Origin: a virus
Lineage: Duplodnaviria > Heunggongvirae > Uroviricota > Caudoviricetes
Strand: one strand, 5' to 3'
IMG/VR virus record: IMGVR_UViG_2585427792_000002
Length of the DNA stretch: 29,926 bases
The notes beneath the pieces were generated by a model, which saw only the letters and a program-made list of their open reading frames with translations, did no database searches and was not told where the DNA came from. Below are positions 3,906 to 29,926 of this stretch, piece by piece; the first letter of the stretch is position 1, and each line of letters begins with the position of its first letter. Both the position numbers and the translations under genes were made by a program.

Positions 3906-4565
3906 TCACCCAAACGTCTCTTCAGGCCATTGGCTGGCGATAACTTTCCCCACAACGGAACAACTCTCATTGCATGGGATCATTGGGTATTGTGGGTTTA
4001 GTGGCTGTAGAAACACCTGACCGCTATCCCTGATCAGTTTCTTGAAGGTAAATTCATCACCACCAAGTCTGGCTATGCAGAAATCGCCGGGCTCAACAGC
4101 TTGCTCAGGGTCAACCAGAATTAACATCCCGTCAGGAAAGCTGGGTTTGGAACCTGTTGGTGCGGTCATTGAGTTACCTTCAACCTCAAGCCAGAATGCA
4201 GAGTCACTGGCTTTTTTGGTTGTGCTTACCAATCTCTCCGCATCGCCTTTGGTAAAGGTTCTGAGTTCTGGAGAGAACATCCCAGCCTGAACATGAGAAA
4301 AAACAGGGTACTCATATTGTTTTTTAACTGGGGCCGATGAGTATTCGCCAACAGGTGAAAATGTCCCGTCGTGGTTGAATGATATGTTATCAATACCAAG
4401 GTATTTAAACACCACACCAATATCACTAAGAGATGGATGACGAGATCCGCGCAACCAGTGTCCAATCCCACCCTGCGTCATACCTAGCTCTTCGGCTAAC
4501 TTCTCTTGAGTTATGCCGAGCTCTTTCATTCTGGATCTAGCCAGTTCATACCATTTCATTTTCAT
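3906..4565 (-). CDS. cI: CI-type prophage repressor (HTH N-domain + LexA/S24-like autocleaving C-domain)
   Basis: C-terminal portion ([26 protein letters not shown]...[12 protein letters not shown]) matches lambda cI from memory; N-terminal domain ([37 protein letters not shown]...) is a different HTH. Start ATG at 4563-4565 chosen for the AAGGA Shine-Dalgarno; ORF track extends to 4607. Confidence 0.85.
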
Positions 4566-4676
4566 GTCCTTATTATTACGCTCTGTACTGGAACCATCCA
4601 TGCACAATGTGTATTTTTACTTGTATTCGCAAAGTACATATTGTATTTTTTTATTCGTGTTTACTATGGAGGGCAT
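4566..4676. promoter_or_regulatory. OR-type divergent control region (pRM / pR and operators)
   Basis: 111-bp AT-rich spacer between divergent cI and cro starts; contains TTGTA/TACAA half-site repeats and AAAGTACATAT, which recurs reverse-complemented in the putative OL region; GGAGGG Shine-Dalgarno before cro. Confidence 0.5.
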
Positions 4677-9824: not shown

Positions 9825-10321
9825 TGCCTCCATCATTACGAAAAGCCGTTGCTGCGGCTATTGGTGGCGGGGCTATTGCTATAGCATCTGTGTTAATCAC
9901 TGGCCCAAGTGGTAACGATGGTCTGGAAGGCGTCAGCTACATACCATATAAAGATATCGTTGGTGTATGGACTGTATGTTACGGGCATACCGGAAAAGAC
10001 ATTATGCTCGGTAAAACGTATACCGAAGCAGAATGCAAAGCCCTCCTGAATAAAGACCTTGCCACTGTCGCCAGACAAATTAACCCGTACATCAAAGTCG
10101 ATATACCGGAAACAACGCGCGGCGCTCTTTACTCGTTCGTTTACAACGTTGGTGCTGGAAATTTCAGAACATCGACGCTTCTTCGCAAAATAAACCAGGG
10201 CGATATCAAAGGCGCATGTGATCAGCTACGGCGCTGGACATACGCTGGCGGTAAGCAATGGAAAGGGCTGATGACTCGCCGTGAGATTGAGCGTGAAGTC
10301 TGTTTGTGGGGGCAACAATGA
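9824..10321 (+). CDS. R: SAR endolysin (lysozyme with N-terminal signal-arrest-release domain), R21-like
   Basis: Hydrophobic Gly/Ala-rich N-terminus ([20 protein letters not shown]) followed by a lysozyme-like body; start overlaps the holin stop; classic pairing with a pinholin. Confidence 0.8.
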
Positions 10322-10755
10322 GTAGAGTAACCGTGATTATCTCCGCTCTGGTTATCTGCATCATCGTCTGCCTGTCATGGGCTGTTAATCATTACCGTGA
10401 TAACGCCATGACCTACAAAGAACAGCGCGATAAAGCCACATCCATCATCGCTGATATGCAGAAGCGTCAACGTGATGTAGCAGAACTCGACGCAAGATAT
10501 ACAAAGGAACTTGCTGATGCTAACGCGACTATCGAAAGTCTCCGTGCTGATGTTTCTGCTGGGCGTAAGCGCCTGCAAGTCGCCGCCACCTGTGCAAAGT
10601 CAACGACCGGAGCCAGCAGCATGGGCGATGGAGAAAGCCCAAGACTTACAGCAGATGCTGAACTCAATTATTACCGTCTCCGAAGTGGAATCGACAGGAT
10701 AACCGCGCAGGTTAACTACTTGCAGGAATACATCAGGACGCAATGCCTTCGATGA
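10318..10755 (+). CDS. Rz: Rz inner-membrane spanin (145 aa)
   Basis: ATG at 10318 overlaps the endolysin stop; N-terminal TM helix then a coiled-coil-like periplasmic region; embedded Rz1 in the +1 frame. Confidence 0.7.
10511..10702 (+). CDS. Rz1: Rz1 outer-membrane lipoprotein spanin, embedded in Rz
   Basis: +1-frame ORF entirely inside Rz; signal peptide with lipobox VSAC, then a proline-rich mature region ([12 protein letters not shown]). Confidence 0.6.
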
Positions 10756-27336: not shown

Positions 27337-28110
27337 ATGGCGGCAGGCATCCCATTAGAAAAAGCGCAAAAATATATTGAACAATTCAATGCGCTTCTAT
27401 TGGATAGGGAAAGTTTAGATCCCTTCACTGAAAAGAAAATTCGAGAGGAACTTTCTGTCTCTCCAACGCCTGCTACCAACATTGCACTATCTTATCTGGA
27501 TGCAATAACCGGAAAGATTGAAAGCGCGTTACGTTATCTCAGGATAAGCCTAGAAGTAAACGATGTAACGTTGGCAATGCACTATCATCACATTTTAATT
27601 AATACATTTAGCTATAATGAACTCAAGGATGTCTATGTCCCGCTGGCAAAGAAGTATCGGACAAAACTCTTTAGTCACAACGCATACAGTTGGGCGTACC
27701 GTTGCGGCGAGCGTGAACAGTTAAAATTTTATATGGAAGAGCACATTAAGCTTCTTTCTGAATCAGAAGGCAGGAGTAATGCTATGAAGCACAAAGAAGA
27801 ACTCCTTGCAGAAATGGATAATTTCTATAGCGCCACACAGTGCTCGAAGGAACAGTTCCAGACCTTAGCATCCATAATCTGGGGCTTGCTAAGTGAATAC
27901 AAGGCTACGACAGGTTTCGTTCAGCTTAGTGGAAGCGGTTGCTATGTTGTTGATATTAAAAATCTTGAGCCTAAAACTATTGCCAAAATGAACTTCGACT
28001 TGGCTGATAGAGTCTGCGCTGAATCTAAACTGGATGATTGTTCCCTGTTAGCTAGATTTACCTCTCCGCGTCAGTTGCATACGGGGGTGAGCTACCATGT
28101 CGGTAACTAG
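27337..28110 (+). CDS. Hypothetical protein (257 aa), first gene of AT-rich two-gene cargo module
   Basis: ORF-track ORF; AT-rich; predicted largely helical by composition; overlaps the downstream ORF by 14 nt (co-translated pair). Confidence 0.6.
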   Translation: MAAGIPLEKAQKYIEQFNALLLDRESLDPFTEKKIREELSVSPTPATNIALSYLDAITGKIESALRYLRISLEVNDVTLAMHYHHILINTFSYNELKDVYVPLAKKYRTKLFSHNAYSWAYRCGEREQLKFYMEEHIKLLSESEGRSNAMKHKEELLAEMDNFYSATQCSKEQFQTLASIIWGLLSEYKATTGFVQLSGSGCYVVDIKNLEPKTIAKMNFDLADRVCAESKLDDCSLLARFTSPRQLHTGVSYHVGN

Positions 28111-28378
28111 CAATCAGATTCTCGATACCGCTCGATTATGTCTGTCTGAAAATATTGAGAGTGGATTTCGAAGCGCTATCTCAAGGGCGTATTACAGTAT
28201 GTTACATGAGTCTATTAGCTCACTTACTGCCATACCGCATTTTACCCATGAGCATCACAAAAATACTGTGGGTTATATGTCAACGCCCTCAGAGTGCAAA
28301 TCAGAGCCATACCCGACAAATACACTGAAATCCCTAGCTTTCGTACTTCGCCAGTGGCGGGATGCTAGAAATGAATAG
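28097..28378 (+). CDS. Hypothetical protein, C-terminally truncated by the IS2 insertion (93 aa as read)
   Basis: The stop codon TAG (28376-28378) is formed by the first three bases of the IS2 left inverted repeat (TAGACTGG...), so the native 3' end is probably displaced beyond the IS. Confidence 0.5.
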   Translation: MSVTSNQILDTARLCLSENIESGFRSAISRAYYSMLHESISSLTAIPHFTHEHHKNTVGYMSTPSECKSEPYPTNTLKSLAFVLRQWRDARNE

Positions 28379-28805
28379 ACTGGCCCCCTGAATCTCCAGA
28401 CAACCAATATCACTTAAATAAGTGATAGTCTTAATACTAGTTTTTAGACTAGTCATTGGAGAACAGATGATTGATGTCTTAGTAGACTGGCCCCCTGAAT
28501 CTCCAGACAACCAATATCACTTAAATAAGTGATAGTCTTAATACTAGTTTTTAGACTAGTCATTGGAGAACAGATGATTGATGTCTTAGTAGACTGGCCC
28601 CCTGAATCTCCAGACAACCAATATCACTTAAATAAGTGATAGTCTTAATACTAGTTTTTAGACTAGTCATTGGAGAACAGATGATTGATGTCTTAGGGGC
28701 CGGAGAAACGCAGAAGCTCCAGACAACCAATATCACTTAAATAAGTGATAGTCTTAATACTAGTTTTTAGACTAGTCATTGGAGAACAGATGATTGATGT
28801 CTTAG
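28376..28805 (+). repeat. Tandem array: about four copies of a 107-bp unit derived from the IS2 left end
   Basis: Copies start at 28376, 28483, 28590 (exact 107-bp period, identical) and 28697 (109 bp, leading 18 nt replaced by GGGCCGGAGAAACGCAGAAG). Each carries the 89-bp core CTCCAGACAACC...ATGATTGATGTCTTAG including the orfA start codon. Confidence 0.85.
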
Positions 28806-29155
28806 GGCCGGAGAAACGCAGACGGCGTACCACACAGGAAAAGATCGCAATTGTTCAGCAGAGCTTTGAACCGGGGATGACGGTCTCCCTCGTTGCCCGG
28901 CAACATGGTGTAGCAGCCAGCCAGTTATTTCTCTGGCGTAAGCAATACCAGGAAGGAAGTCTTACTGCTGTCGCCGCCGGAGAACAGGTTGTTCCTGCCT
29001 CTGAACTTGCTGCCGCCATGAAGCAGATTAAAGAACTCCAGCGCCTGCTCGGCAAGAAAACGATGGAAAATGAACTCCTCAAAGAAGCCGTTGAATATGG
29101 ACGGGCAAAAAAGTGGATAGCGCACGCGCCCTTATTGCCCGGGGATGGGGAGTAA
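28790..29155 (+). CDS. insC: IS2 transposase OrfA (InsC-like, 121 aa)
   Basis: Product [40 protein letters not shown]... (HTH) matches IS2 OrfA from memory; the ORF track's longer 28745 start runs through the repeat. Confidence 0.85.
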
Positions 29156-29926
29156 GCTTAGTCAGCCGTTGTCTCCGGGTGTCGCGTGCGCAGTTGCACG
29201 TCATTCTCAGACGAACCGATGACTGGATGGATGGCCGCCGCAGTCGTCACACTGATGATACGGATGTGCTTCTCCGTATACACCATGTTATCGGAGAGCT
29301 GCCCACGTATGGTTATCGTCGGGTATGGGCGCTGCTTCGCAGACAGGCAGAACTTGATGGTATGCCTGCGATCAATGCCAAACGTGTTTACCGGATCATG
29401 CGCCAGAATGCGCTGTTGCTTGAGCGAAAACCGCTGTACCGCCATCGAAACGGGCACATACAGGCAAAGTGGCCGTGAAAGAAAGCAATCAGCGATGGTG
29501 CTCTGACGGGTTCGAGTTCCGCTGTGATAACGGAGAAAAACTGCGAGTCACGTTCGCGCTGGACTGCTGTGACCGTGAGGCACTGCACTGGGCGGTCACT
29601 ACCGGCGGCTTCAACAGTGAAACAGTACAGGACGTCATGCTGGGAGCGGTGGAACGCCGCTTCGGCAACGATCTTCCGTCGTCTCCAGTGGAGTGGCTGA
29701 CGGATAATGGTTCATGCTACCGGGCTAATGAAACACGCCAGTTCGCCCGGATGTTGGGACTTGAACCGAAGAACACGGCGGTGCGGAGTCCGGAGAGTAA
29801 CGGAATAGCAGAGAGCTTCGTGAAAACGATAAAGCGTGACTACATCAGTATCATGCCCAAACCAGACGGGTTAACGGCAGCAAAGAACCTTGCAGAGGCG
29901 TTCGAGCATTATAACGAATGGCATCC
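29113..29926 (+). pseudogene. insD: IS2 transposase OrfB (InsD-like, DDE domain), apparently frameshifted; partial at window end
   Basis: The N-terminal frame (29113...) stops at 29476-29478 (...[18 protein letters not shown]), while the recognisable continuation ([15 protein letters not shown]...[10 protein letters not shown]...) runs in the frame one base back, from about 29472 to the window end. Confidence 0.55.

Follow-up and report, generated by a model that had tools for sequence, protein, structure and literature searches.

IS2, an IS3-family element that is common in E. coli and present in K-12, transposes by a copy-out/paste-in route; its left end acts as recipient during the first step and as a donor in integration (PMC3219604; PMC3299598). 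This left end comprises an 11-bp cleavage domain and a binding domain that spans nt 12-42 (PMC3299598), and, besides the left inverted repeat (IRL), it has a region that is marked as carrying a weak extended -10 promoter (PMC3219604). Tandem dimers, (IS2)2, are documented for the element, and deletions that arise from an active junction between two inverted repeats begin at the edge of one of them (PMC9333248). In such dimers, and in the minicircles of the IS3 family, the junction consists of the right end, 1-2 bp and the left end.

General literature searches returned no precedent for tandem arrays of an IS end. A possible precedent, to be taken as a lead only, is provided by IS2-6 and IS2-7, the 'mini-insertions' of Ghosal and Saedler from the late 1970s, which are said to be internal IS2 rearrangements by which some 108 or 54 bp derived from IS2 are added close to an end. 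They were reportedly recovered as gal-constitutive revertants and are said to consist of inverted or complex copies, not head-to-tail units.

The locus described here lies in a window of 29,926 nt, by which we mean the whole stretch of DNA that was analysed. The window is an E. coli prophage that combines a lambdoid-type early region (CI-like repressor, SieB, NinG, lysozyme) with an E217-like contractile-tail module of the myovirus type; the SieB superinfection-exclusion gene and the CI-like HTH/S24 peptidase repressor are found at 1253-1834 and 3906-4607 (-). At 28376-28805 the prophage carries a reiterated IS2 left end. The element resembles canonical IS2 in its orfA, its A6G frameshift site and its body, and the repeated units are 100 % identical to IS2 nt 1-107. 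Likewise, a related contig features the usual right end and a 5-bp target duplication. It differs from canonical IS2 in having three extra left-terminal segments and one left end without its tip, as well as a private 1-nt deletion in orfB and a cluster of variant alleles. Structurally, the array represents a new form of a well-studied element and is of specialist interest.

Structure of the left-end array

The following features make up the array:

28376..28482, + strand: unit 1, IS2 nt 1-107, with the full 42-bp IRL (28376-28417), the weak extended -10 promoter region and the ribosome-binding site (RBS); its start codon, ATG 28467 plus 5 codons and 1 nt, lies inside the unit
28483..28589, + strand: unit 2, IS2 nt 1-107, identical to unit 1; IRL 28483-28524; ATG 28574
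28590..28696, + strand: unit 3, IS2 nt 1-107, identical to unit 1; IRL 28590-28631; ATG 28681
28697..28805, + strand: unit 4, 109 nt, with IS2 nt 1-18 exchanged for a 20-nt patch
28697..28716, + strand: the 20-nt variant patch, GGGCCGGAGAAACGCAGAAG, in place of IS2 nt 1-18 of unit 4
28717..28805, + strand: remainder of unit 4, IS2 nt 19-107, with the true orfA RBS and ATG 28790

Tandem Repeats Finder detected a single tandem array in the whole window, at 28376-28805, with a period of 107, 4.0 copies, 96 % matches and a score of 779. A separate repeat finder returned 28376-28482, 28483-28589 and 28590-28696 as 100 % identical and 28699-28805 at 89 %, with spacings between units of 107, 107 and 109. 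When compared with IS2 of K-12 W3110, all three full units are nt 1-107 without a single difference. The 42-bp IRL, which starts TAGACTGG (TA-3' terminus) and is the same as that of K-12 IS2, is present in three complete copies at 28376, 28483 and 28590, and its 27-nt tip occurs exactly three times in the window as opposed to an expected zero in shuffles. The block that contains the RBS and ATG, GGAGAACAGATGATTGATGTCT, occurs four times. The k-mer TGATGTCTTAGTAGACTGGCC spans the join of nt 107 to nt 1 (107|1) and CGCAGAAGCTCCAGAC spans the variant junction of unit 4. These results bear out the initial annotation, which had described the first 107 bp of IS2, its left end, as present three times in perfect tandem, with the RBS and ATG of orfA in each copy.

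The fourth unit is less straightforward. It had been described as a copy whose outer 18 bp are replaced by the IS2 sequence that normally follows the unit. The replacement of these 18 bp stands, while its identity with the following IS2 sequence holds only in part, given an extra G, an aberrant 3' end and a length of 109 nt. The patch GGGCCGGAGAAACGCAGAAG can be parsed as an extra G (or a second nt 107), IS2 nt 108-124 and then AG. Relative to IS2 nt 108-127 (GGCCGGAGAAACGCAGACGG) it has one G more, with four G at 28696-28699 versus three at 28805-28807. Its 3' end reads AAG, whereas a clean join to nt 17-18 predicts AAT and the normal continuation of IS2 is ACG, and the 8-mers that span CAGAAGCTCC within the patch are not found in IS2. 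The IRL of unit 4 is left without the 11-bp cleavage domain and without most of the recognition element 12-19 (domain limits from PMC3299598), and the unit is thus unlikely to work as an end. In sum, the sequence contains three complete left ends with cleavage and binding domains and one that is crippled, four copies of the left-end promoter region with its palindrome, and three short upstream ORFs that lead to dead ends.

The palindrome in question, TATCACTTAAATAAGTGATA, lies from the inner edge of the left inverted repeat into the promoter region and is found once per unit, four times in total (28408-28427, 28515-28534, 28622-28641 and 28731-28750). Any protein that binds it would meet four sites.

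From 28806 onward the sequence continues as IS2 body and leaves the window at IS2 nt ~1229, before the right inverted repeat. A search of the window for this repeat, with up to three mismatches allowed, found none. As the window has no sequence resembling a right inverted repeat, the idea of a minicircle or dimer junction is rejected, in agreement with the earlier view that the array does not look like such a junction. The array shares with these junctions an exact IS terminus that abuts other IS DNA, and decay of a dimer is a plausible source for its founder (PMC9333248); it differs in that the terminus is joined, head to tail, to the internal position 107.

Reading frames and the state of the element

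The coding features and allelic differences of the element are as follows:

28467..28532, + strand: short upstream ORF 1, 21 codons then stop; the same peptide is encoded again at 28574-28639
28681..28740, + strand: short upstream ORF 3, 19 codons then stop; it crosses the variant patch
28790..29155, + strand: orfA (121 aa), intact; the A6G programmed-frameshift site at 29107-29113 is also intact
29113..29926, + strand: orfB, disrupted by a 1-nt deletion at IS2 position 735, between 29432 and 29433
29467..29573, + strand: differences from the IS2 of the related contig L011, namely the private G770A (29467) and 823C/840A/842A/849A/876C (29520-29573)

With an RBS and an ATG in every unit, the array might be taken for a set of extra in-frame starts that gives rise to N-terminally extended OrfA isoforms. 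The initial annotation had proposed as much, on the premise that translation from each start stays in frame across the following unit and on into full-length OrfA. Translation contradicts both the premise and the proposal. The unit length of 107 is not divisible by 3 (107 mod 3 = 2), and all three upstream ATGs run into stops, after 21 codons from 28467 and 28574 and after 19 codons from 28681, where the predicted peptide is MIDVLGAGETQKLQTTNIT*. In all three cases the stop precedes the next RBS. Given the unit length and these stops, the 121-aa OrfA is opened by ATG 28790 alone. The upstream starts are thus predicted to yield peptides of at most 19-21 residues with OrfA unchanged, and the chance that the array serves to produce OrfA isoforms is negligible.

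In canonical IS2, orfA and an overlapping orfB are joined by a -1 frameshift at the A6G site to produce the OrfAB transposase. This arrangement is broken in the window, as the deletion in orfB shifts the frame to a stop at 29476-29478 and places the rest of OrfB in another frame from 29433. With orfB frameshifted, the element would not make its own transposase, and any movement would require transposase supplied in trans. Judged by its predicted reading frames, the IS2 of the window is a non-autonomous derivative that encodes OrfA and lacks a transposase of its own.

The deletion at position 735 is not present among the best matches of ~18,000 IS2 places in complete genomes. G770A is likewise not present in the best matches among complete genomes, and neither change is present in the related contig L011. 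The five alleles from 823 to 876 are those of the IS2 subtype of strain 582, while the remaining body is K-12-like; the cluster looks like either a short conversion tract or a mosaic produced by polishing of a repeat. The 606C allele is common to the IS2 of the window and that of L011.

A scan of 28250-28950 returned no sigma-70-like site at its threshold, a result that is to be read with the blindness of the scan to extended -10 promoters such as the native P_IRL. By eye, the hexamer 17 bp upstream of the TAGACT -10 box is AGAACA, which matches the -35 consensus at 3/6 positions. A promoter created at the unit boundaries, similar to Pjunc, is unsupported on this basis.

The insertion site and related sequences

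IS2 has entered a small phage ORF:

28097..28378, + strand: phage ORF truncated by IS2, phrog_5176, 93 aa here and 131 aa when intact; matched to a PHROG of unknown function

The stop codon of the truncated ORF, TAG, is the first three bases of IS2. An intact form of 131 aa is found in NZ_CP038859 (L001:11098-11493), and in this uninterrupted relative the ORF is followed on its 3' side by a hairpin and a T-run. The ORF is the second gene of a two-gene cassette at 27337-28378 (L001:10338-11535) that is low in G+C (about 41 %) and lies between baseplate genes; the first gene encodes 257 aa (phrog_17809). The small cassette protein features RAYYSMLH, which by sequence resemblance recalls the R-x(4-6)-H motif. 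With regard to a defence or toxin role of the interrupted gene, 0 Pfam and 0 PADLOC matches were obtained, and the only PHROG matches were to families of unknown function.

Other assemblies of the prophage, Logan ERR14002508 (18,026 nt) and IMG/VR 2585427779 (18,589 nt), start at ~9900-10400 in the lysozyme/lysis region, which implies a repeat there in common with other prophages. The window spans it, which points to the use of long reads or scaffolding for the source.

Because the 93-aa ORF ends at a stop supplied by IS2, it marks this particular insertion, and it is present in several independent public assemblies. Most contigs that contain it break 30-55 nt inside IS2. One IMG/VR contig, L006, extends 112 nt into IS2 and, as far as the end of unit 1, matches the window at 100.000 % identity over 9,139 nt. 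After unit 1 it continues with GGCCG, which is IS2 nt 108-112, and therefore has a single left end. The opposite flank comes from L011, a contig of a second IMG genome, in which IS2 nt 475-1331 with the right end is followed by the 5-bp duplication, ATGAA, and then by phage DNA. Apart from 606C, the IS2 of L011 is K-12-like, and its orfB is intact. As these related contigs show one left end and a normal right end, the array would be either a derived structural variant of one IS2 copy or an assembly error.

To look for the junctions elsewhere, queries were designed that a normal IS2 end would not seed. For 107|1, no true match was obtained in 5,426 complete E. coli genomes, in PLSDB plasmids, in GTDB species representatives, in IMG/VR or in JGI metagenomes; the query matched only ordinary left ends with an 87-91 % chance extension into the flank. 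Shigella is covered in these collections by plasmids only. Neither the GTDB representatives nor the complete E. coli genomes contain the variant junction, and no two IRL tips 92-122 bp apart were found in IMG/VR. At the protein level, no ORF reading across 107|1 was found among the matches listed from a set of 5.8 billion proteins, no listed match to the peptide across 107|1 had 100 % identity with 100 % coverage, and the three minus-strand ORFs that cross the junctions had no exact-sequence record.

Shorter reiterations of the IS2 left tip do occur in other genomes. A minus-strand ORF that reads out through the left terminus of IS2 was used as query and led to three proteins that run into a second partial left end, all confirmed in the DNA; among 209 such ORFs, these three were the only ones with a reiteration. 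From the database cases, a class [nt 1-N][complete IS2] was defined, in which an outer partial left end is joined in the same orientation to nt 1 of a complete IS2. Units 1-3 of the window show this arrangement, and the comparators are L008, L009, L010 and L012-L015:

L008:1-190, GCA_050286245.1, draft E. coli: outer nt 1-50 (N = 50-53), 3-nt TAG overlap
L009:1-190, GCA_016858685.1, draft E. coli: outer nt 1-54
L010:1-160, GCA_030511535.1, draft E. coli: outer nt 1-25, one mismatch
L012:1501-2856, L013:1501-2856, L014 and L015, NZ_CP050031, NZ_CP035822, NZ_AP027829 and NZ_CM169472: N = 25 form, 1,356 bp
L016:1503-1556, NZ_CM172717, strain FCI54: solo IS2 left-end remnant, nt 1-54, with IS100 exactly after nt 54

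The three draft cases (L008, L009 and L010) occupy three different chromosomal sites. Complete genomes yielded no match to the N = 50 junction of L008, and five of them matched the N = 25 junction in a single piece. Target duplications of 5 bp, GTTTT and ACTAT, enclose the N = 25 form from its outer tip to its right end in strains 33-6 and WS4437A-1; the loci differ, and the inner elements differ at 3/1331 nt. Strain ESDR8 features the same 25-bp reiteration on a K-12-like IS2. The N = 25 form may therefore move as a unit and represent a mobile isoform, although formation in situ would likewise keep the duplications, so that these do not prove its mobility. Reiterated left tips are, as far as finished assemblies attest, heritable. 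These forms are like the window in having an outer partial left end joined head to tail to nt 1 of a complete IS2. They differ in that each has one extra partial tip and no array, N lies within or just past the inverted repeat, and none includes the promoter, RBS and ATG. No description of shorter left-tip reiterations was found in the searchable literature.

Apparent N = 54 matches in FCI54 and FCI55 were rejected as reiterations, as they consist of an IS2 remnant cut by IS100. The IS100 breakpoint in FCI54, nt 54, is the breakpoint of the reiteration in L009, and the remnant shows the IS2 left end serving as an insertion target. This suggests an insertion hot spot at nt 54, beside the IS2 palindrome. 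The FCI54 remnant differs from L009 in that the invader is another element, IS100, and no reiteration was produced.

Given these comparisons, it is possible that the array is an artefact of assembly or consensus, in which one left end or fewer units were expanded when an assembler unrolled a loop in the IS2 repeat graph, or in which polishing errors were confined to the repeat. At the same site, a near-identical related contig shows one left end only, and the junctions are absent from the five collections and from the protein matches listed. Furthermore, the body combines two IS2 subtypes as a mosaic and has two private changes beside a perfect flank, which is typical of multi-copy regions that short reads cannot polish, and three perfect 107-bp copies cannot be counted by k-mers or reads shorter than the array. 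Against this, graph assemblers cannot invent the 107|1 and variant junctions, so the reads must contain them; an artefact would be more likely to consist of identical units than to include a variant of 109 nt; and terminus-precise reiterations of the same design exist elsewhere, including in finished genomes with intact target duplications.

An origin independent of transposase must also be weighed, in which slipped-strand mispairing or illegitimate recombination during replication produced the duplication and the IS terminus became an endpoint by chance. Tandem duplications of ~100 bp are common products of replication slippage. The variant junction has a possible 2-nt GA overlap (nt 123-124 versus nt 15-16), and the L008 junction has its 3-nt TAG overlap. 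The 107|1 junction, however, has 0 nt of microhomology on both sides, as opposed to the short direct homology at endpoints by which slippage is recognized, and one of its endpoints is the exact IS terminus. In addition, the inner copy starts at, or no more than 3 nt from, the exact terminus in the N classes 25, 50-53, 54 and 107, which slippage that is blind to endpoints would not predict. We therefore consider such an origin quite unlikely.

Origin and significance of the array

The reading that we prefer, with a probability of roughly 55 %, is that the array is a derived variant in which a transposase-linked founder junction was followed by unequal recombination, and that it is not a coding or regulatory device. 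The starting point would be an ordinary IS2 that inserted into the small phage ORF with the target duplication ATGAA. In a first step, nt 107 of IS2 would have been joined to the exact left terminus, nt 1, of a complete IS2, giving a founder of the form [nt 1-107][complete IS2]. As one endpoint is the IS terminus and microhomology is zero, this join would most likely reflect transposase chemistry. Two routes could lead to the same product. The left part of a resident IS2 may have received another IS2 in the same orientation (at 107/108), followed by recombination between the two bodies. Alternatively, a tandem (IS2)2 dimer may have formed transiently, whose active junction of right and left ends deleted DNA from the edge of the inner left end to nt 107 of the left copy of the dimer.

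In a second step, the resulting 107-bp direct repeat would have expanded to three perfect copies by unequal sister-strand recombination or replication slippage. Tandem repeats of ~107 bp are unstable. As an alternative, transposase may have hit the same site repeatedly. The third step is the least secure. Here a misaligned template switch or a short repair patch at the last unit boundary would have replaced ~18 nt (nt 1-18) with ~17 nt of body (nt 108-124) from one unit away, with imprecise ends, to leave a unit of 109 nt.

This preferred account is supported by the occurrence of the same terminus-precise design at different loci with N = 50-53, 54 and 25, and by the IS100 of FCI54, which marks the IS2 left end as a target for insertion. 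Several observations weigh against it. The 107|1 and variant junctions are found nowhere else and constitute a single instance, no clean event accounts for the extra G and the T-to-G change at the variant junction, and no IS2 nested in IS2, or dimer, at nt 107 was seen directly. Moreover, the private point differences (735del, G770A, the extra G and AG) all lie inside the multi-copy IS2, while the adjoining 9.1 kb of unique DNA is free of errors, a pattern that assembly or polishing errors confined to repeats would be expected to produce as well. The initial annotation had listed recombination at the IS end, an unusual transposition by-product and mis-assembly as candidate origins, and this list still brackets the truth.

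A broader interpretation holds that left-end reiteration is a recurrent, transposase-driven outcome of IS2 self-targeting or dimer decay whose products are functional, with the 25-bp form as a mobile member and the 107-bp array as an extreme, expandable one. We regard this interpretation as doubtful. If it were true, the extra left ends would offer alternative recipient and donor ends, and the extra promoters and palindromes would retune the expression of OrfA and the transposase. For its part, the array is probably rare, neutral or harmless, and unstable, with no evident selective rationale, and its copy number and placement are putative.

For annotation, the array indicates that reiteration of an IS end can occur, and that ATGs found upstream in repeats of this kind are not to be taken as alternative starts. 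If it proves to be an artefact, it is an instructive case of repeat graphs that are mis-unrolled around IS ends. IS2 is a textbook example of an element with asymmetric ends, the left end acting only as a recipient in the first step. An allele with three complete and one crippled left ends would be a natural substrate with which to study how transposase chooses among left ends, and the same applies to the 25-bp form. Ultimately, the array and the 25-bp form could show whether IS2 attacks its own left end.
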